DNA from: Macrostomum lignano
Lineage: Eukaryota
Reading direction: 5' to 3'
Assembly (NCBI GenBank): GCA_002269645.1
Contig: NIVC01002472.1
Location: forward strand, 1-64,000
Length of the DNA: 64,000 nucleotides
Both the position numbers and the translations under genes were made by a program. Of the stretch, positions 1 to 51,319 are shown one piece after another; position 1 is the stretch's first letter; each line of letters begins with the position of its first letter. The notes below the pieces were generated by a model, which saw only the letters and a list, made by a program, of their open reading frames with translations, was not told the DNA's origin and did not search any database.

Positions 1-328
1 AATCTCAGTTTTAGAATACATCTTAGTGTCAATTTCGGTTTAGAATACATCTTAGTGTCAGTTTCGGTTTTGTGTAGACATTGTTTACGCGCCCATGAGC
101 ATCGTCAATTAATTGTAGCATGGTGATATTCATTGCGTCACTATCTTCCTTTGAATAAGAGTCTGAAACATTTCTCTTTGCTAACAATAAATTATCTATT
201 TCCTCTCTCTTATATCCTTCATTTTCATTGGTGTATCGATCATCAGCTAACGCTATTGTTATTCCAGGTGCTATATCATTTGAATTTGACGAGTAAACCA
301 AATTGATTGCAGTATTCTTGTAACTCAT
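1..328 (-). CDS. Fibre-like repeat protein (YxKxExD repeats), 3'-truncated by the window edge and frameshifted
   Basis: ORF 29..328 has YKREEIDNLL and YSKEDSD. The roughly 30-nt tandem units at 1-75 read YTK(T)ETDTKM-YSK(T)EIDTKM-YSKTEI once single missing A bases are restored. Confidence 0.55.
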
Positions 329-753
329 TTTAATTGCTGCAAAATTTCATTATAGCTATCTCCTTTATCGATTCGGTGTAAAAAGTACAGCGACATTTGA
401 CCACAAAATTTCTTATCAAAATTTGAATTTGTTCTTCCATGTCTCCACATATTCTATTCTTTGTGTGATTAAACTTTTCCATAATTTCCAGTGTGGGCGT
501 AGTGCATAGGAATCAAAAAAATAAACCTTATCAGGAGCTGAAAATATAGCTGAATGATGTATACCCCGTTCTTTCGAAGTGTGAATATTTGTCATAAAGT
601 AACCATACTGTGGTAAATCAACAATTTCATCTCTCATGCGTAGCGAAATGGTTTTAACTTGAGATATTTTGCCCAATTTATCAGATCAATATTAGTCGTA
701 GTGTCAGTCCCAAACTTTTGTTTAAATGCATTCCATGTCTCAGCTTCGCTCAT
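325..753 (-). pseudogene. Adenain-like (Polinton PRO) cysteine protease, broken by at least 3 frameshifts
   Basis: Joining frames gives MSEAETWNAFKQKFGTDTTTNIDLINWAKYLKLKPFRY / MRDEIVDLPQYGYFMTN..GIHH..YFFDSY / QIQxFDKKFCGQMSLYFL..LK*. Catalytic H, D, Q and C are all present. ATG at 753, TGA at 325-327. Confidence 0.8.
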
Positions 754-762
754 TTTTAACAC

Positions 763-1553
763 TCATATTTGTCGTACGTGTAGATTTATAAATATTTCCT
801 CGCCATCAAAGTCGTATAGAACACCAGACTCATCTTCGATGACAAAGTCGAATGTGCTCAACATGTTTGTAGTTAGTGGTAGGTACACAGGATTTGCAGG
901 CTCTTGAATAATTTTACTTCCCATTGGGACAGAGAACGATGGAATTGAAAGAAGTATTTGCTTATCAATTAAATGATTTCCATTGGCTGGATCAGTGATA
1001 AAACCCCCTTTGATATTGAGACAACGAACCATGATCGCACTTCTAGCTCCGTCTATCCGAGCTGGATTTGGAGCTCTCTCAAATGGTTTCAAGTACACTT
1101 CCGAATTGAATCCTAACAGTCTTCTAAAGTTATTGGAATGTGCATCCCTGAAATCAACTTGATACTCTGTGGCTAACCGTAACTCAACTCTACGCGTGTC
1201 TAGGCTTGCACTGAAAACAATAGCCCCCTCTTTCCAATCATTTGCAGCTGTTAGCAATCTTTGAATCTCGCTTGACAGACTTTTAACTTCCCAGATCCCG
1301 CTTGAATCTTTATTTTTTTTCCATGTTCTACCACTATCCCTCGAGTATCGCAACTCATTATTGCCTCCTTCAATATTGTTAATAGCATCAAAGACTGCAA
1401 ACTTTTTTATACCAGCTTCGTATTCTCGATCTTCATACAAATTTATCGGAGTGCCTAGAGTTTGTCGAAATGGTTTTTAATTGAAAAGAAGTCAAATGTG
1501 CGTTGAAACTTTTTACTCAAGAGGATGTTGACTTTTTCTATTTCTTTTTCCAT
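763..1553 (-). CDS. Minor capsid protein (penton, single jelly roll)
   Basis: ORF 763..1440 carries Polinton penton motifs (INNI..NNELRY, GIWEV, LLGF, PMGSKII.EP.NPVYLP, DFDGEEIFINLH). Probable true start is ATG 1553 (TAAAAATG) with a frameshift near 1470-1480. Confidence 0.82.
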
Positions 1554-1555
1554 TT

Positions 1556-2287
1556 TTAAGCAAGTAATTCTGCTAGCTCTTTATCAACATTGTTATGTCC
1601 CTCTGCTTTTGCGGCTAGTAATGTCAACACTCTTTCACTGAGTCCAGATCCCGGTTTTACTCGATATCCTGGTGGATTATCTTTCAATATCCTTACTGCT
1701 TGCTTATAATTCCCACTTGATTTGGCTGCTGGATTTTTACAGTGTTCAATGAGGTTAACATAATCCTGCAATGTTTGCATCTTGAATTGCTTCAGCTCTT
1801 CACCATTTTCAGTTACTTTAGGCATTTTGAACAACTCTTCAAGATCTTCAGAAAATGGCATTCGAAATTCGTTGACAATGATGTCTCGACCTTGTTCATG
1901 GAATTCAACATCTATTACAGATGATCCAAATATATATCCAGCATCTGTTTTTTGAATTCGTATACTAGGTGCTGGTCTTTGAGTTATTGGAATCTTTCCA
2001 ATTTCTTCAATTATTTTGTCAAATACTTCCAGAGGTTCAAATCGTCCTTTTGGTGTACTTGATTGCGGAACTGGAACTTTTTGATTCTGAAGTTTATCAA
2101 CAAGGTTGGCATTGACACCAATAAATTCATCAAGCTTTTCTGTGACAGGTTTTTGAGCTAATGGAGCCACTCTTGTATATAAACTCTCTTCTCCAATTTT
2201 CAAATAGCGTTGAGCATCATTTCTGGATTTGTACATTTCTCGCTGCTTTGCTAAATTAATGAGTTCTCTTATATATTCATTAGTCAT
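1556..2287 (-). CDS. Conserved Polinton/adintovirus hypothetical protein (243 aa)
   Basis: Intact ORF between ATPase and penton. It has an N-terminal KPVTEKL motif and C-terminal GSGL..VLTLLAAKAEGHNN..ELAELL, resembling conserved uncharacterised Polinton ORFs (from recall). Confidence 0.6.
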   Translation of the reverse strand: MTNEYIRELINLAKQREMYKSRNDAQRYLKIGEESLYTRVAPLAQKPVTEKLDEFIGVNANLVDKLQNQKVPVPQSSTPKGRFEPLEVFDKIIEEIGKIPITQRPAPSIRIQKTDAGYIFGSSVIDVEFHEQGRDIIVNEFRMPFSEDLEELFKMPKVTENGEELKQFKMQTLQDYVNLIEHCKNPAAKSSGNYKQAVRILKDNPPGYRVKPGSGLSERVLTLLAAKAEGHNNVDKELAELLA

Positions 2288-2289
2288 TT

Positions 2290-3064
2290 TTACAATGGGA
2301 TTTTAGTTAGAACATCCTTATACAAATCTTGCTCATCCTCATCAGCTCTTGTATTTATATAGATATAGCCATACTTCTTTTTCCAAGCCTCTCTACATTT
2401 AGCCTTGAATATAGCGGGTTCATAATTCGTTTCTATATTTCTAGCAATGTGATTTCAAGTTTGCATCTTTTTGTTTAAAGATTATGTAACATGTCGTATT
2501 CTCCCTGACAGTATTGCGATCTAGTTTGGTAAAATTTTGAGCTAGATAAAAACCACAACAGTTTCCATGCCTGCCTCTCTGAAACAGACTTTCCTGAAAT
2601 GTTTGATTAGCCTCTCCCAAAACATCGTCCAATATCACACATGTCTTTAGTCCATTATGAAAAATTTCTTCATTTGGAGTATGGGAAAGAGTGACAGGAA
2701 TTTTCTCTATTACTTCTGAATTTTCTGATGTGCTTTGCACTCGACCAGGGTTGGCTGCCTCTCGACAAATATGTCTAATATCTTCAGGAGATGCATCCTC
2801 ACTCACCTGGTAGACATGATAGAGTGAGTTGATAAGAGAAGGTGGGAGACCATTTTCAAAGCCATATTTTAGAAACTGATACTCTGGATCCATTTGAGAT
2901 GCTCTGGGAACATATAAAACTAACTCATTAAAGTCAACTAGTTTTTCAGGACTTGTAAGAATATGGAATAGTAAATATGTTTTACCCGTATTTGTAGCGC
3001 CGATAATACAACATAAAAGAGGATTAGGGAAAATAGGATCATGCTGAAATTTTACTTTGGGCAT
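2290..3064 (-). CDS. A32/FtsK-like genome-packaging ATPase (one frameshift)
   Basis: Walker A GATNTGKT, Walker B CVILDD and LFQRGRH..FYLAQ..VRENT motifs. Removing one base in the AAA run at 2453-2455 extends the frame through HIARNIE..CREAWKKKYGYIYIN to TAA at 2290-2292. Confidence 0.92.
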
Positions 3065-3085
3065 TTAAAAAAAGAAAAAATGACC

Positions 3086-4450
3086 TTATTCGACGCGGGT
3101 CATTTGATATTCACTGGTAACTTTTATTACATTCTTTGTTTGTTCAAGAATTAGTGCAAAAGCAGTCAGCTCAACATTTGTTGACTTCTTGATAAATAAT
3201 TGAATATTCACTCCACTCTTGACCAGAAACTCATCTTGAGCTGTTAGATCAAAGCAAAAGATTGGATAGATGGTTAGAAAGTCTTGTTTATTGAATGGAG
3301 GAGTTACACCGAAACGGCTGCAGATGTCTTCGTACATTTCATACGCTCTGTGAATGTCTTGAGCTACTGGATCAATTTCAACATAATCATTCGGATACAT
3401 CACCTGATTTAATCTGACTTGAAGCTGGGTTATTTTCACTGCATTTGCTCCAGTTTTGTAAGACACATACTTGTGATCATTAACTATATATGATGGGTTG
3501 TTTACGTCATATTTGAAAGCTACAAAGATTGCAAGTGGCATATTGGAGATGTTGGCTATGTTCCATGTATATGGACTTCCTTGAATGAGTTGTGGCGGAA
3601 CCGTTACCCTCTCTGGAAATGATACTGTAATGTCCTTGTTGAGTGATTTTAGAAAAGCTGCTTCAGCACTGGGTGACAAAGTAATAGCAGGGATCCAAAT
3701 CTCAAAGCTATTAATAGTTAACTTAGCTTCCGTCCCGGCAGCTCCAAAGAAAATTTCAGCATCGTTAGTCTTTCTTGTCCATGTGAATTTATATTTAATT
3801 CCTTTGCTAATCTTCTGCCAATCAAGGAACCCAATGAGAGGTGTTAATGATAGTTTGATTGTTCCACCTCTGTTTGGAGCATTAGTGACATTGTTATAAT
3901 TTTCAAGCCTCCTAATGTATCCAGTATTCGAATCCTTCTTATTGAGTCTATTTTTCATAGCGATTGCTGCAGTTCTCACAGCTTCAGCATCTGCGTTGTT
4001 TGCTAGAGGTATATCAGAAACAGTCCCAGCATCTCCAGTGTCTGGAATCCATCCGTATGCTTCTCCAACTTCATTCATTAATTTTGAGTACATTACGGAC
4101 TTTAAGATTGTGTCATACTCTCCAGGATCATTATAGACTTTCTTTGTTCCTCCAATGTCAACTATGAGTTGAGAGAAAAGTCTCATAGGCCAATTATGTT
4201 CTAGAGTAATGTTCGTATTCAAGTCGGTGTTATCTCGTTGTGTTATTGAGTATTTTATACAACCGAATGCCTCTGACATGAGAATGTATGACTCTGTTGA
4301 ATTGACTTCATGAACTATTTGACCTCCTGCAACATTGAGATTATTAGTGCTACCTGGAGTTGGAGAAATCTTAATATAGTCTTCTTTCTTTTTGAAAAAG
4401 CTAAAAGTTTTGTCCTCATATATGCTCAGTATATCCTTTTTGTTCTCCAT
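3086..4450 (-). CDS. Major capsid protein (double jelly roll, hexon-like)
   Basis: Intact 454-aa ORF with Polinton MCP-type motifs: N..RLFSQLIVDIGG, IPA, AIFVAF, LQVRLNQVMYP, AYEMY, YPIFCFDLT. Confidence 0.88.
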   Translation of the reverse strand: MENKKDILSIYEDKTFSFFKKKEDYIKISPTPGSTNNLNVAGGQIVHEVNSTESYILMSEAFGCIKYSITQRDNTDLNTNITLEHNWPMRLFSQLIVDIGGTKKVYNDPGEYDTILKSVMYSKLMNEVGEAYGWIPDTGDAGTVSDIPLANNADAEAVRTAAIAMKNRLNKKDSNTGYIRRLENYNNVTNAPNRGGTIKLSLTPLIGFLDWQKISKGIKYKFTWTRKTNDAEIFFGAAGTEAKLTINSFEIWIPAITLSPSAEAAFLKSLNKDITVSFPERVTVPPQLIQGSPYTWNIANISNMPLAIFVAFKYDVNNPSYIVNDHKYVSYKTGANAVKITQLQVRLNQVMYPNDYVEIDPVAQDIHRAYEMYEDICSRFGVTPPFNKQDFLTIYPIFCFDLTAQDEFLVKSGVNIQLFIKKSTNVELTAFALILEQTKNVIKVTSEYQMTRVE

Positions 4451-4470
4451 TTTTATAAGAGAAATTTCAA

Positions 4471-4923
4471 CTAAGCTTCATGAGGTCTAAGAATTATCCC
4501 ATTACCCTGTTTCTCCTTTTCAACTTTAAACGTCTTTAGCAGCCACTTGACTGCTTCGCTGGGTACTTGTTCGACTCTTTTAGCCGCATCAACTAATACT
4601 CCACTCCCTTGAGCCTTTTTCAACTCTTCTAGTTTTTGCCGTTCAATGCTTTCTATTGTCTTATTATGTTTAGCATTGTTGGCTGTATTAACACTTTTTG
4701 CAATCATTGTACCAACTCCTGAGGCTGCTCCGATACCACCCAAAATTGCTGGTAGTAAGTCTAATAGAGGAATTATTCCACCTTCATGTTCTTTCTGTTT
4801 CTCTTGCAATTCTCGAATCTTCTCTTTAGAAAGATATTGCTTTTGCTTATTTACAGTAACATATCTTGGTTTTCCCTCTCGAACATATCGATTGAGTCTT
4901 GCTTCAGTGTTTTTCTCGCTCAT
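4471..4923 (-). CDS. Small putative virion protein with GG-preceded hydrophobic/amphipathic segment (cupiennin/pX-like class of adintoviruses)
   Basis: HEGG|IIPLLDLLPAILGGIGAASGVGTMIAKSVN motif with a basic N-terminus, located directly upstream of the MCP gene. Confidence 0.62.
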   Translation of the reverse strand: MSEKNTEARLNRYVREGKPRYVTVNKQKQYLSKEKIRELQEKQKEHEGGIIPLLDLLPAILGGIGAASGVGTMIAKSVNTANNAKHNKTIESIERQKLEELKKAQGSGVLVDAAKRVEQVPSEAVKWLLKTFKVEKEKQGNGIILRPHEA

Positions 4924-4931
4924 TTTTAAGG

Positions 4932-5354
4932 TCAGAATTTCTTCAAACCATTGCCTTGTCTCAAAGACACTTGAGACTGTTCTGCTGTTCCTAGAGCCTT
5001 TTTAACAATATCTTGAATAGCCTTATTTGATTGAGAAGCTATCTGTTGCTCTTCTTCCATTCTTTTCTTTGCTTCTTTATCTCTACGTTTCTTTTTAATA
5101 TATTCCAGTTCCTCACCTGCTTTAGACATGTCACTGTATGATTTCTTCGCATCGAATATGTTCTTCGCTGTGGTAGCTGTTTTACCTATTGCATCAGCTC
5201 CACTCACAATTTTACTTCCATGATTTGATAAAAAGTTTGTGACACCACTGATCATATCACCAATTCCTTCACCCTCTTTATCAGCTAGTAGTTGTGAATC
5301 AGACGTTTCAATCTGACCTTTCGCCCGTTTGCAGTTTGTTCGATAGGCGCTCAT
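4932..5354 (-). CDS. Small putative virion/core protein (140 aa) with GEG-preceded amphipathic helix
   Basis: Start reassigned to ATG 5354 in TAAAAATG context (MSAYRTNC...). It has GEGIGDMISGVTNFL followed by a charged coiled-coil-like stretch. Confidence 0.55.
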   Translation of the reverse strand: MSAYRTNCKRAKGQIETSDSQLLADKEGEGIGDMISGVTNFLSNHGSKIVSGADAIGKTATTAKNIFDAKKSYSDMSKAGEELEYIKKKRRDKEAKKRMEEEQQIASQSNKAIQDIVKKALGTAEQSQVSLRQGNGLKKF

Positions 5355-6666
5355 TTTTAGTTGAAAAATTTGCTGGTAGAAGCTGGGATTTGTAAAATGA
5401 TCCAATGATTTCTTCTCCATTCTCATCCTCAATAATGTAGGTTATGGGATTGGAGTAAACTATTTTCTTTATCCTAAACACTTCTGAAATTTTCCAATAT
5501 CCTCTTCGACCCTTTTCAAAGTGCTCCTTATATCTATAGATATGAACTTTGTCACCTACTTTGAAGTTTGGTTTCTCATTTGAATACTCGAAAGTTGGCT
5601 TTGGTACTCGCTCAGGATGTTTAGATGCTTCTGAAGGAGTTATCAGAATCTCAGAATGGATTGTGTTGTTGTATTTTTCAACAATAGCTGGCAATGTGTG
5701 GAGCCACTTCTGATTACCCTGTAGATCAAATTCAAACCAGAGTTTATTTGTGAGAGTACGATTGAACCTCTCAATCATTGCATTCTTGGACTCGCCATAA
5801 ATTGAAAACATCTTGTTAATATATTCACCCCTTTCATCCTTCTTTCTAATGTTGTCTTTTGAAAACGAGTATAGCTTGTACATATGCTGATTATAAAACT
5901 CCTTGCCTTCATCTACACAAAGTCTCTCTGATCGTCTTCCTGATTCCTTAAATACTTTTTGGAAAGCTTCTGCAACTTCCGCTCCCGTCTTTGTTTTCAA
6001 AGGAACTGCCCAGGCGTAACGTGTAAAACCATCTATGATAGTGAGAGCATATTTGTAACCTCTTTCGGGCGGTAGGATAATGATATCTGCATGCCAAATT
6101 GTGTCTTTTGCATAGTGAATCATTTTTCTAAATACTCTTGGCTTTCTGTATTCCCTATGTAATTTTACTGCATCTTCATAGCTAAGACCCTTACCATAAA
6201 TTGTTAGACAGTCTATACAATTGTTGGGGTTGTGAGTATGAATTCCTAATCCAAACCGAACTTTAGCATTGATAATACGCTTTACTAGATTTCTAATGAG
6301 TCTCTCCTTTACCGACAAGTCGCTGGTTGGAATAGCATCTAAATCAGCTATCATTTTTTCATCAGCAATATGCTTCTTTGCTAGGGCTTCCTCTGGAGTT
6401 GAAGACGTCTTTTCAGCATCTCTATAGCTTTTGTCATGATAGTAAGCAGTCCAATCAATTGGATTAATTGGTAGACTATCATACCGAGGCCAGTCTGTAA
6501 TTGGATTGAGTCTCTTGTCTAAATTTGTACCTGGGCCAGTGAAAGAATACCCTGGAATATGAAATTCGCCAGGATATTTTCCAGTGGCGAAGATGGGTGG
6601 TAGTTTTGTTATAGCTGACTGAATATCCAATGCAGAACCTAGAAATAATGGTTTACTGAAGGCCAT
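5308..6666 (-). CDS. Parvovirus-type phospholipase A2 (PLA2X) fused to a Polinton DDE integrase
   Basis: N-terminal PGYSFTGPGT (Ca loop) and AYYHDKSY (HDxxY active site). C-terminal WHAD / CVDEGKEF / MIERFNRTL DDE core, followed by FKVGDKV..FEKG..SEVFRI..GSFY. No chromodomain at the end. Confidence 0.92.
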   Translation of the reverse strand: MAFSKPLFLGSALDIQSAITKLPPIFATGKYPGEFHIPGYSFTGPGTNLDKRLNPITDWPRYDSLPINPIDWTAYYHDKSYRDAEKTSSTPEEALAKKHIADEKMIADLDAIPTSDLSVKERLIRNLVKRIINAKVRFGLGIHTHNPNNCIDCLTIYGKGLSYEDAVKLHREYRKPRVFRKMIHYAKDTIWHADIIILPPERGYKYALTIIDGFTRYAWAVPLKTKTGAEVAEAFQKVFKESGRRSERLCVDEGKEFYNQHMYKLYSFSKDNIRKKDERGEYINKMFSIYGESKNAMIERFNRTLTNKLWFEFDLQGNQKWLHTLPAIVEKYNNTIHSEILITPSEASKHPERVPKPTFEYSNEKPNFKVGDKVHIYRYKEHFEKGRRGYWKISEVFRIKKIVYSNPITYIIEDENGEEIIGSFYKSQLLPANFSTKNERLSNKLQTGERSD

Positions 6667-6699
6667 TTTTATAAAAATAAATTTAAGTAATCTACAGAC

Positions 6700-6870
6700 T
6701 TAGGCTGCGTTAACTGCTGTAGCAATAGAGCCTGCTGCACCTGCCTGTTCTATGAAAGGTAGATTTGTCTTTTACTAAGTTGGATATGGTGCTTATAGTA
6801 TCAAAAAAGACCTTCTCCATTATACTCTAGTGGTTCGCCTATTGTATAGTCTCTTATCTTGCATGATTCT
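6700..6870 (-). pseudogene. Degenerate paralog of the small GxG-motif virion proteins
   Basis: Frame-broken translation GEG(L)FDTISTISNLVKD / NLPFIEQAGAAGSIATAVNAA* resembles GEGIGDMISGVTNFL and GAASGVGTMIAKSVN of the neighbouring ORFs. Confidence 0.45.
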
Positions 6871-6884
6871 GTAACGTGATGCGC

Positions 6885-7375
6885 TTCGTGTCTTTTTAGA
6901 AAGGGGTGAACACAATAGACTAGCATGAGACGCTCCTATTGGTTGCCAATAGCAATGTTCAGTGCTGCGGTTATGTATAGTTAGTTTGGTGAGTTCCTGC
7001 GAGAGCCTATTTGACCATACGCTTCACTCAGTGTGGGTTTCGCACGACGTTAAAGCTGAGTCACAATATAAAAATTGCTTTGAGGAGAATTTCTCCTGCT
7101 ATTTGTTCCATTTTTAAGATACATAATTTAGAAAAGGGTTAGTGAAATCGTCCGTAGGTAGGGTCGCGAGAGCATTGTTCGTTTGTAACTTGCGTGGCCC
7201 ACTTCATGTCTTTTTTTACAGCTAGATAGAGGGTGAACACAAAAGATTTGCACGAGCCACTCCTATTGGATGCCAAAACCAAACACTTTTTGGCAGAAAT
7301 TTTGGCAAAAATTTTGGTTTTGGCAGAAATTTTGGCAGCCAATAGAAATGTTGAGTGCTGCGGTTAGTGCTCTAG
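6885..7375. repeat. Two diverged direct-repeat blocks with inverted repeats at the viral flank
   Basis: Blocks at about 6885-6975 and 7200-7370 share GTCTTTTT..GGGTGAACACAA..CTCCTATTGG..GCCAATAG.AATGTT.AGTGCTGCGGTTA. The second block has a 13-bp inverted repeat TGCCAAAACCAAA / TTTGGTTTTGGCA. Confidence 0.7.
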
Positions 7376-7856
7376 TAGTCGAGTATGCATGTCACGAAAA
7401 ATTTAAATTAGCGCTCCATGTTCTTGAATGTCTTCTATTATCTTTAAGTACAAATCTAGAACAGCATTAAAGCCATTTCAAAGCCTCGGGACAAAGCGAA
7501 TGTGCAGGAGCAAATTATTGACTTTTGTAAAAGCATTGTATGCCTCGAGTGGACAATTTTTATGCATAGATGGTAGCTGACTGATCGTTAAAAGCAAAGC
7601 TAGTAAGATTGGCTTATTGAAGGGCGTTATGCAATGGGAGAAAAGACTATTATTAAATTTGATGCTAGTTTTGAAATGATGAAACCTGAAAATAGGTTAT
7701 TTTAACCCACGAATCAAAAATTTCTTGTGATTTTACTCACGAAATCGCGCAAAAAGCAATTTTTCGAAACTTTTGAAAAATCACTAAAATCACTGTTTTC
7801 AGACAATTTTCACCTGTTTTTAGTCGATTTTTATCTGTTTTTTGTGATTTTTCAAA

Positions 7857-10180
7857 ATGGGTTGCGCTCAAACCTACTTTTCCTATACTACTTGCGTTAG
7901 AGTTGAGAGTTCAACTCTACACGAGCGAATTAGACGTCTGTCTGTGTGCCTGGCAATAGCGGTACTTTCGTTTCTGCTTCTTTCGTTCTGCTCTACGCTC
8001 TCAGCACAGCTCGGTTACCACCTGGAGCAGCTACCGGCCAACTGCTATCTACAGCAGCCACTCCCAAGCAGCCCAGCCTGTGCACCAGCGAGGCCTGCAT
8101 AAGTGCAAGCGCACTGCTGCAGAGCCACATCGACCGTTCCGCGGACCCGTGCCAAGACTTCTACAGCTTCGCCTGCGGCGGTTTCCATAAAAGCCACCCC
8201 TTCACTGCCGAGACCGTGGGCTCAGTACTACAGGAGGACAACTCCATTCAAGGAAATCTATTTGAGATGATGTACTTCAAGAACTTGTCCAAGCCCAGAG
8301 ACGCAAGCGAAGCGCAGCTGTTCCAGACGCTGCGATACATCTACGGGACCTGCATGGATTGGCGCGGCTCCAGCGTTCTGAATTCTAAGAAAGAGGAATT
8401 TCTCCCGAACAGCTGGCAGACTGGAGAACGACCTTTCGACATGAAATCATTAGTGAGACCTTTGTTGGACTTTCTAGAGGGCTACTCAGGCATTGAAGAC
8501 TTCCTAGCGAGACTGGTGATATCCGGTACATCGGATCTGTTCAGATTGTCGCCAGGCTCGGTGGAGCGGAGTCTGAGATTGCACTCGTCACCATACTACC
8601 TATCTACCCTGAAATCCTGGAATCATGTTTTCAATGACGGAATTTCTGCATTAGAAGATTTCAGTGATCTCATAGACCTGAATTTGACTGTTAGTATAAA
8701 TCAGATGAAGCCTGCAGTTCAGCAAATGTTAAACAAAGGCGAATCGTATTTGAAAGTTGGTCCTTACCATCTGGAACAGCTGCAGAATTTTACTCAGGTT
8801 GAGGCAGAAAATCTCAACTTTAACTGGACGGAGTTTTACAGCGCTGTGAGCAAGTATTCAGCCAATAAGTTACCTCCCTCAATGAAAGTTGAAATTATTA
8901 GGTACCCGCTATTATTTTTTGTACTCGAGCAGCTCACAACGGAGCTGGAGCACAGACAGGGACCCTACTATGACTTTATTCGCCTGGACTCTGCACTGTC
9001 GGCAGCAAATTTTCTTCCAGACGAATCGTTTAAATTCTTTAAAAACCTTTTCGGGCAACAAAAGTATCTCATTCATGAGAAAGAAGGCCGGAACAGCTCG
9101 AGACTGTGCATGGACATGATGCTGGGCTCCATGCCGCCAGTGGCTTTGCAGATGTTCAGCAGCGCCTTCGTCACAGACGACTTCAACTCAGTGAAAGTGG
9201 TAATCGGCGACATCAAGGAGGCCATGTGGGAGAATGTGGACAGCGAGGCGTGGATTGAGCAGCCGAGTAAGGCAGCAATTAAGAAGAGAATCGATGCCAT
9301 GCGGAGCACCGTCGGCTACCCCCAGTTCAACATGTCCGAGTTCACCGAAGGCTACTCAAAAGTTGCTGCTCAAGTTAATCAAAGCAGAACATTTGGAGAT
9401 GTTGTTTTGCAGTTTAAAAGCACTCAGCTTCAGAATCGACTTTGGATTGCGACAGCTGACAAACAGGACATGATGCCAAAAGATATGTTTACAAGAATGT
9501 TTACTGTCAACGCTCATTATTCACCATACGACAATTCGATTTTTATCTACTTTGGCCTGCTGCTCAGCAAAATTTACATGAAGGGCTACCCTGACTACCT
9601 GTTGTACGGTGGCGTCGGCTACATAATCGGCCACGAGGTCGGGCACGGCTGCGATAGATTAGTCAGTAAATTTAGTGTTGGAAACAAACAGAAACGTATA
9701 TTTGACAATGTCACAGCGCTGCGGTACGGCAATAAAACTGACTGTCTGGCTAATTTCTACAGCCAGATCATCGATCCTGAGTTCGCGAAATCCGAAATTT
9801 CGGAAGAGGAAACGGAAGCAGAGGTTCAAAAGTTTGATGAAAATTTTGCCGATATTGTTGGCACCAATTCCGCTTTCCTAGCCTACAGAAACAGAGCAGC
9901 AAAATTGCTGAAGTCTGGGAATCGGCCTCAGATGCTTCCAGGAGAGAAATTGGCAGGCCTGACACCTGATCAGCTGTTCTTCATCCAGCAGGCCCAGCTG
10001 CACTGCACCAAGGCGGAAATGGATGCTCTGATTTCTCGACAAAAAAATTATTCTCACTCGCCACCGCATCCCAGAGTGAACGGCCAGGTGATGCAGTCGA
10101 AGGACTTCGCCAGGGTGTTCAACTGCAAGCCGGGAGATCCAATGTACTTGGCTAACGATAAAAAGTGTCACTTCTGGTGA
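7857..10180 (+). CDS. Intronless M13 family metallopeptidase (neprilysin/ECE-like), type II membrane protein
   Basis: CTSEAC, DPCQDFYSFACGG, VNAHY, HEVGH zinc motif, ENFAD, HSPPHPRVNG and F.C..G.PM are present. ATG 7857 plus one restored T near 7980 gives a continuous signal anchor LSVCLAIAVLSFLLLFVLLYALS joining the 744-aa ORF. Confidence 0.93.
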
Positions 10181-15800: not shown

Positions 15801-17115
15801 TCATCTAGAACTGGTGAACGATCTGTAAGACCATAATTGCGAGAAAAATCAGCACGAGGGCTCAAAGGCAAAGTTAGTCGATATATATATTTGTCATTCA
15901 CTATGTACGCGCGTACATTCCGATCGATATAGGTTCAGGTGAATAAAAGCGTGTCCAACCCCCCAGAGTAGGCCAACCCCCAAAACAGCCAACACAACGA
16001 ACACCAAAACTCACAGATCTAACAACTGAGACCTTCTTAGAGCCCTAAGGCGATTCTGTGCAAGGAGAGGTATCCCTAGTCTCATTAGCGATAACGCTAA
16101 GACATTCGCCAAAGCCGCGCGGATATTGCAAGCATCGGAGAGTCAAAAGGTTCAGGAGTTCTGCGCCACTCGGAAGATTACCTGGCAGTTTATCACGGAA
16201 CGCGCACCCTGGCAAGGAAGCTTCTGGGAGCGACTGATGAAGGACATCAAGCTGGCACTGCCCAAAACCCTTCTGAATTCAAGTCTAACACTGGACGAAC
16301 TGCTGACAGTGCTCATGGAGGTGGAGGCGGTGCTCAACAGCCGCCCTCTGCTCTACGTGGATGCCGAGCCCGAAGGAGAAGTTCTGACACCGGCACACTT
16401 CCTGGTGTTACAGCGGCTAACGGCGGAGCCTACTTCTAGTTGCGCGCCAGATCTTCTGCTACCGTTGCCAAGACTGCTGAAGCGAATGCGCGCCAGACTT
16501 CATGCCTTCTGGGACTGCTGGGAGCGGCAGTATCTGACCAGCTTGCGTGAACATCGGCTCAATCCTAAGCACGGCGTGATCGGAGAGGCGACGGTCGGTG
16601 ACATCGTCCTGGTGAAAGGCGAAGCTGGCCAACCGAGGCTCACTTGGTGTTCTTGCATTATAGAGGCAGTGCATCCGGGACGAGACGAGTGAGATCGGCA
16701 ACAGTTCGAGTCGCGCAAAGGCCAGGCCGCGGACCCAGGAGATGCTTGATTCGCCGGCCGGTTGAAAACCTGATTTTGCTAGAAGCCGTGACTGAATTAA
16801 CGGTTATTGACGTTTCTAAAGCTGACAGTGACTATTGACGTCTGAGTTCTCAGTCTTTATCCCTCCTTAGTTTCAATCTTCAAGTTCGTATCCTATCGTG
16901 CTCGTGCTCTGTGAGTAAACTTCTCAACGCGACATTTGGTTTTCGCTATGGTACAGTACGCTGGTGATGATGCTTACATTTTTGCTCATTGGCGCCTTTT
17001 GTGTTTCTGCTTTTTCCATAACTTAGTACTTTGGTGATGGTGCGTTACGTTATCAAGTATGTTGTAATGATAAAGCATCATTAGGGGGGAGTGTTAGGGT
17101 TTGTTGTGTGCCTGC
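12847..17115 (+). mobile_element. BEL/Pao LTR retrotransposon, degenerate, RT/RNase H deleted
   Basis: 5' LTR 12847-13070 (TG..CA), PBS TGGCGCCCGAAC at 13071 and DUF1759-type gag (FNGDWTQWTAFWDRF). Zinc knuckle CFSCLSKGHATKTC, protease ILFDSASNRSFI, integrase (DYCGP, SDNAKTF, APWQGSFWERL) and DUF5641-like tail follow. PPT AGGGGGAG at about 17083 precedes a 24-bp remnant of the 3' LTR at 17092. Confidence 0.92.
15824..16015. mobile_element. Solo LTR (192 bp) inserted in the BEL integrase
   Basis: TG...CA ends, GATC 4-bp TSD (15820-15823 and 16016-16019) and an internal AATAAA. Excision restores N-D-L-T-T-E-T-F. Confidence 0.85.

Positions 17116-26143: not shown

Positions 26144-44408
<18,265 letters not shown>

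Positions 44409-47678: not shown

Positions 47679-51319
<3,641 letters not shown>

Follow-up and report, generated by a model that had tools for sequence, protein, structure and literature searches.

Polintons, or Mavericks (Polintoviricetes), and the virion module of the Alpha-class adintoviruses share a gene set of protein-primed DNA polymerase B (pPolB), rve integrase, double jelly-roll major capsid protein (MCP), A32 ATPase and protease, together with a phospholipase A2 (PLA2)-like gene, terminal inverted repeats (TIRs) ending in AGTAGT and a 6-bp target-site duplication (TSD) (Starrett et al., PMC8502044). Group I introns are described from bacteria, from phages and viruses, from organelles, and from nuclear rDNA (of fungi, plants and algae); the only ones placed in animals are those of some mitochondria (PMC3984707). 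The Polinton-like viruses (PLVs) in which they have been reported, by scan and without an assigned endonuclease, are those of the protists Paulinella, Desmodesmus and Rhodomonas only (PMC12220804). Collaborative homing and composite mobile introns are known from phages (PMC3984707), and collaborative homing is mentioned elsewhere only as an analogy (PMC11296320). Here we describe a Polinton of the flatworm Macrostomum lignano, the right 7.9 kb of which occupies positions 1–7892 of a 64,000-nucleotide stretch (the window; contig NIVC01002472.1, assembly GCA_002269645.1). We consider it probable that this is the right part of an element of ~17.4 kb whose siblings carry pPolB, and that it holds the intron-less allele of a site that is filled in sister elements by a likely self-splicing and likely homing group I intron.

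Three groups of elements enter the comparison. Type B comprises the copies with the TIR of the window; type A joins the same core to other TIRs and another replication module; and family C is a third, distant family with an MCP ~26% identical. The gene in question (5308–6666, minus strand) encodes a fusion of a PLA2-like domain (Phospholip_A2_4, E = 1e-8) and a retrovirus-type integrase (Pfam rve, E = 7e-10, above the cut-off), which the original prediction, made from the letters of the window, had listed as an integrase without its PLA2 domain. Its frame of 452 amino acids is open and intron-less in the window, where the empty insertion site (6534–6535, minus strand) falls at a Gly/Pro codon boundary of the PLA2 motif.

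Between the same Gly and Pro codons (window 6535|6534), most type A copies carry an insert of 837–895 nt (~880 nt). Scores against the group I intron model of Rfam (RF00028, cut-off 50 bits) were 88.9 and 82.6 bits for type A introns and 72.1 bits for a family C copy, and in a search of the genome 28 of 28 scored candidates, a lower bound, exceeded the cut-off. The U that ends the 5′ exon faces a G in P1, and G is the last base of every type A intron examined. With the intron taken out, the PLA2–integrase frame is again as it stands in the window. Across 15 natural copies 98.3% of the cells pair, compared with 33–52% in slid controls, and 10 of 51 pairs, spread over 8 of 11 helices and including three in P7, have changed on both sides. 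From its motifs, the intron presumably belongs to subgroup IC1.

Filled and empty alleles occur side by side. Of 45 genomic matches to the start of the 3′ exon, 25 lie on contigs with intron matches and 20 have the start seen in the window. All type B copies whose sequences were checked proved intron-less, as did four older type A copies (C273 twice, C944 and C3589), which have a type B-like site. Ten of the 12 family C loci contain an ORF-less intron (one without an open reading frame) of ~300–340 nt at the same codon, one is empty and one (L200, on C441) holds an insert of divergent sequence in the PLA2 site. The P1 of this insert is altered but still pairs and its 3′ core is different; it is possibly a chimera or a second type of intron. 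In three truncated loci, a family C-like first exon is joined to the start of a nuclease-bearing intron. Another description of the cassette next to the integrase, in which a duplicated promoter flanks a restriction-like gene, was rejected, the ‘duplicate’ being the first exon.

The ORF of the type A intron, 228 codons long, opens between P2 and P3 and extends across the ribozyme core. Its match to Pfam RE_Eco47II lies just below the cut-off (E = 1e-5), and it has 190 relatives at E ≤ 0.001. A D-E-K motif is at least 90% conserved in 82 aligned sequences (the query and 81 others, 80 of these from 150 listed matches), and dN/dS is 0.27 between A1 and A2, the type A subgroups with the replication block in either orientation, and 0.11 between type A and family C, values that indicate selection on the ORF. 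The product is a putative PD-(D/E)XK nuclease and a predicted homing endonuclease. The read-through tail that the intron core encodes is also present in three unrelated metagenomic homologues (43–63% identical). A nuclease gene also lies directly upstream of the PLA2–integrase gene in all 12 family C loci, of the PD-(D/E)XK type in six and HNH/EndoVII-like in six.

The protist PLVs resemble these elements in that RF00028 introns, of ~300–380 nt, sit in small double-stranded DNA virus elements integrated in nuclear genomes (PMC12220804); Macrostomum differs in its bilaterian host, in the PLA2–integrase target and in the coexistence of empty, ORF-less and nuclease-bearing states. As in the phage systems, members of one nuclease family are found both free-standing next to an ORF-less intron and encoded within the intron (PMC3984707), but here the carriers are endogenous viruses of an animal nucleus, and the predicted cutting would be the work of an Eco47II-like enzyme. 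The literature that we surveyed, which excludes Repbase, supplements and most subscription papers, yielded no report of group I introns in Polintons or in animal nuclear elements or genomes, and no paper on Macrostomum Polintons. Among at least 122 loci, the closest introns that we found are in contigs of giant viruses and other viruses, in part close to related HNH genes; such viruses are a likely source. Viral contigs searched with the integrase protein gave no match, and the intron junction motif occurred in none of them; the single metagenome contig with the motif was discarded: the match lies by chance among bacterial genes in GC-rich sequence, and the top matches show no similarity to the intron.

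Three features can be read as signs of homing. The intron occupies one site, at the same codon, in families whose capsid proteins are so distant; A1 and A2 agree at 92.9% in the intron and at 99.7% over the adjoining 300 nt of exon; and the type A 5′ exon ends in 9 nt that are those of an intron-bearing family C copy and not of type B, whereas the preceding bases are mostly those of type B. The 9-nt change suggests a short co-conversion tract.

Splicing and homing are both inferred from sequence, and we propose the following course. In keeping with established Polinton biology, excision of an element would be followed by copying from its TIRs through pPolB, probably by packaging, and by re-insertion through the integrase. 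We further suppose that two elements replicating in one nucleus would recombine in their shared core, moving capsid genes between replicons. The PD-(D/E)XK enzyme would cut the intron-less PLA2 site, repair would introduce a copy of the intron together with a few bases on its flanks, and splicing from the mRNA would restore the PLA2–integrase frame. The nuclease would first have stood beside an ORF-less intron, homing collaboratively, and later have moved into it. The allele in the window, which differs from intron-bearing alleles just before the site, may resist cutting, which would explain why all type B copies examined are empty. For the proposal in its fullest form, in which Polintons brought active, mobile, self-splicing introns into a bilaterian nuclear genome, with splicing from mRNA, homing among copies, the whole path from empty site through ORF-less intron with free nuclease to composite intron, and resistant empty alleles, the chances seem to us evenly balanced.

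The stretch in the window was present in 20 of 24 listed sequencing runs, none of them recorded as RNA. When four of the 24 runs were compared with a type A copy, X2 and X4, but not X1 or X16, yielded a contig joint that begins at the predicted 5′ splice site and shortens the sequence by a net 880 nt; it is seen in two of four runs from two studies and is missing in the DNA-like run. A second joint in the same comparison is the window-type allele.

Several observations count against our interpretation. The RNA status of the runs compared was guessed. Two of the first four 3′-exon bases at the 880-nt joint differ from the reference and none of the 45 genomic starts match them; another strain may have an intron-less DNA allele that would account for the joint, and family C does contain an intron-less allele (L202) with the same 5′ exon end. 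The covariation is largely one contrast, of type A with family C, between related sequences, and the count of ten pairs was also reached in 52 of 500 shuffles. Eight of the ten family C introns end in A and two in the canonical G. The fast filter of Rfam returned only three matches in 20 loci; seven family C introns escaped it despite their close sequence similarity to those that it found. The single-sequence structure model of the nuclease is unusable (pLDDT of 34), and the one match of the nuclease in the Protein Data Bank (PDB) is weak (E = 1.2).

The alternative that survives best, although we think it unlikely, accepts a real group I intron but makes it a passenger, which entered once with an ancestral virus, was passed on by descent and disappeared from type B; the nuclease would then be an enzyme of defence or of a restriction-like kind and not one of homing. 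Nucleases that resemble restriction enzymes are indeed common among these viruses (bioRxiv 10.64898/2026.10.13.758929). The final A of most family C introns would fit such a history, and, given that ribozyme cores evolve slowly, the identity of 83–86% between type A and family C introns, compared with 62–65% for the exons, is no proof of transfer. A single entry with loss in type B is harder to reconcile with the older type A copies that are intron-less and have a type B-like site. Homing, for its part, predicts the short flank change, the divergence of A1 and A2 introns and the alternation of two unrelated nucleases in one slot, and the shared core-encoded tail of the three metagenomic homologues also argues against a passenger.

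The coexistence of filled and empty alleles is set in a wider exchange between replicons, for which there are precedents: pPolB1 and pPolB2 have been swapped in Caenorhabditis briggsae Polintons (PMC10748475), and mosaicism of replication modules has been described (bioRxiv 10.64898/2026.10.13.758929). As in those cases, near-identical morphogenesis genes occur in one genome on different replicases. The capsid–integrase core is ~97–99.9% identical between types A and B, with a median distance of 0.5–1.8% in six core segments and of 2.8% in the integrase gene, in which all 21 diagnostic columns fall in codons 45–174; the MCP in the window differs from type A MCPs by 0.07%. The replication modules are distinct. 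Type A has TIRs of ~585 bp, a pPolB that is 46.6% identical to that of type B, and a PriCT-2/D5 primase–helicase. Its TIR ends in a 100-nt hairpin with a 25-bp stem (−34.8 kcal/mol; L032:7874–7973), whereas the type B end (−5.2) has no such hairpin, a difference that may reflect a different mode of priming. The label ‘gasdermin-like’, first given to a 246-amino-acid gene, was dropped as unsupported, the gene matching only SLATT_1 at E = 0.03.

In the type A pPolB the Exo I and Exo II motifs are altered and Exo III is missing. Among 60 aligned homologues, of at least 196 listed, Exo II and Exo III are present in 59 and Exo I in 50 (nine of the others are truncated and one is changed). To judge by dN/dS values of ~0.23–0.34 against four diverged copies, the type A enzyme is still under selection; it groups with the family C lineage (support 0.997). 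The mavirus pPolB, which has an exonuclease remnant and a separate SF3 helicase (PMC11161782), offers a parallel in that type A has lost the Exo I–III motifs and is paired with a primase–SF3 helicase gene, but the type A enzyme is that of a Polinton in an animal, descends from the family C lineage of the same genome and comes with 100-nt hairpin ends.

Left and right end types agree in all 22 typed copies (13 type A and 9 type B), without A/B hybrids; the Fisher P value of 2e-6 for this concordance is overstated, since some contigs duplicate one insertion. In the MCP tree, types A and B interleave in both a young and an older clade, and TSDs match inside one contig for A1, A2 and a type B derivative. 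The left break point between the types falls at a start codon, and the older partner in the swap would be type B by synteny with family C and type A by polymerase kinship. In contrast to the C. briggsae swap, TIRs, primase–helicase and accessory genes travel with the polymerase in Macrostomum, both types are multi-copy, the break is at the start codon and the two pPolBs are 47% alike, compared with 16% (PMC10748475). By these comparisons, the exchange of replicons is a known process and the Polinton itself a known type of element; the new part would be the intron in animal nuclear elements, to which the window contributes the empty allele.

It is very improbable that the shared core is an artefact of assembly or polishing, or that a contaminating or symbiotic protist, and not the worm, is the source of the contigs. 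The assembler does exchange flanks among near-identical copies, as the disagreement of TSDs within five contigs shows. Part of the A/B interleaving in the core may be an assembly artefact, with some contigs duplicates of one insertion, and the closest introns and HNH genes, among the matches listed, are in giant-virus and other viral contigs. Against this stand the insertion in a host gene that has empty alleles, copies on contigs of up to 1.5 Mb, the branching of both right-end types from one core in short-read contigs of four independent studies, and the lack of end hybrids among the 22 copies.

The window element is a Polinton of the adintovirus type, as the original prediction had proposed: it combines an rve integrase, a double jelly-roll MCP and an A32 ATPase with long TIRs that have AGT termini and a 6-bp TSD, and its siblings supply pPolB. 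It does not end at 7380, where that prediction had placed its limit, but at 7892, with the terminus ACTACT of a 902-bp right TIR (6991–7892) followed by the TSD TGCGTT (7893–7898). On C2071 the TIRs of both ends are 100% identical. The same 6-bp TSD recurs before left ends on C2071 and C3035; it is present once in the empty site on C591 and as a one-base variant on C2236, within the 5′ part of a coding frame for an M13 peptidase. The expected junction with host sequence was thus found. The left end of the window’s own insertion was located on two other contigs, where it adjoins the type B pPolB, a protein of 1,275 amino acids with all exonuclease and polymerase motifs and with open frames of 1,275–1,276 amino acids at five places. 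The window itself lacks the gene because base 1 is the start of the contig, an assembly break; of the two options offered at the outset, pPolB beyond base 1 or no pPolB at all, the siblings and left-end contigs bear out the first and not the second.

That the window represents a polymerase-less, integrase-bearing capsid element, the novelty suggested for it should pPolB be absent, is barely conceivable. Positions 1–7892 do contain no pPolB, and a 7.9-kb deletion derivative does exist on C1095, but that derivative has lost the capsid genes and most of pPolB. Base 1 is the contig start, same-TIR copies carry pPolB with intact motifs, left ends with the same TSD and host flank run on into pPolB, and the B module (pPolB or the adjoining small ORF) forms the left part of all nine type B copies for which both ends were typed.

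The type B derivative on C1095 (L067, 9713–17574) has both TIRs, a matching TSD and the integrase. Non-autonomous elements of 12.6–13.6 kb with the TIR of the window (95–96%) and long inverted arms occur on C1157 (L063/L064), C3314 (L065/L066) and C1638 (L061/L062); in one of these we noted ORFs that we take to resemble fragments of CACTA-type transposases. A subtype, B2 (L075, L128, L130 and L112), has a diverged TIR and, in three members, an insert of ~215 bp in pPolB. The same non-LTR (long terminal repeat) retrotransposon of ~5 kb lies beside pPolB in type B (L033:2902–7810) and in family C (L116:7998–9437), and two metagenomic pPolB homologues (P0032 and P0034) contain inteins with LAGLIDADG domains.

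The virion genes and integrase of the window, in sequence that is AT-rich (GC 34–39% across 1–7892), run head to tail on the minus strand with intergenic gaps of 2–21 nt, which upholds the module first described. From the contig start these are the 5′ part of a fibre-like gene (1–328), frame-broken and cut by the contig start, with two F5/8 type C domains in sibling copies; an adenain-like protease (325–760), frame-broken here and 143 amino acids long in a sibling; a putative penton (763–1550), broken near its 5′ end (263 amino acids in a sibling); an open 243-amino-acid ORF without a family match (1556–2287); an A32-like packaging ATPase (2290–3064), broken near its 3′ end (257 amino acids in a sibling, in the whole ORF of which Pox_A32 scores above the cut-off); the MCP (3086–4450), an open frame of 454 amino acids matching the jelly-roll family PF21738 above the cut-off (E = 1.9e-13); and open ORFs of 150 and 164 amino acids (4471–5426) with GxG motifs and no family match, which are likely virion core proteins. 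The openness of the MCP, the integrase and the three small ORFs was as first noted. A search of the PDB with the MCP sequence gave no match. For the penton there was no Pfam or PHROG match, and its Atlas neighbours (0.98) are unnamed viral proteins, mostly of Preplasmiviricota. The protease had no profile match; its name rests on gene position and on a His/Asp/Gln/Cys motif that we assume to be the adenain one.

Frames are open in 17 of 29 copies for the MCP, 19 of 30 for the ATPase, 21 of 30 for the protease and 11 of 31 for the penton; counts for the 243-amino-acid gene and the fibre, which hinge on strict marker motifs, were set aside. The breaks vary from copy to copy (C2167, with the right flank of the window, is broken at other places) and most of those in the window are missing from short-read contigs of four runs, so that many are probably assembly errors. 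The 764-Mb genome holds at least 40 MCP copies at 90–100% identity (40 of 56 candidates scored). An NCBI protein assigned by name to Macrostomum lignano agrees with the window MCP at 100% identity, in line with the flatworm host that had been guessed; the closest other MCP is 63% identical and the next ≤45%, with 12 matches in total, so the lineage is indeed poorly sampled. This distance from other MCPs, the fusion of PLA2 to the integrase and the intron site set the Macrostomum elements apart from those described earlier (PMC8502044). CCAAT-rich repeats of 150–170 bp lie at module junctions and in TIRs (window 6542–6684, 6731–6902 and 7193–7366) and are possible promoters and recombination points.

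Beyond the element, the host gene for a neprilysin-like M13 peptidase (7893–10180, plus strand) is split near its 5′ end by the insertion. It is a single-exon gene with several paralogues, and the copy in the window shows, besides the insertion, a frame difference from the empty alleles near the membrane anchor. Further along lie what we take to be a fragment of an LTR-retrotransposon integrase (16030–16692), a purine-rich simple repeat of 2.7 kb (27700–30450) and an exon presumably related to GTP cyclohydrolase I, followed by an ATCT repeat (48678–50500).

A multi-copy intron with filled and empty alleles in a laboratory flatworm makes ribozyme function in animal mRNA testable, together with homing between endogenous viruses and the way in which a nuclease and an intron come to be joined. 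The intron-associated enzyme is a candidate for a new site-specific nuclease. Because homing and module exchange need two elements replicating in one nucleus, both would be indirect evidence of an active extrachromosomal phase of Polintons.

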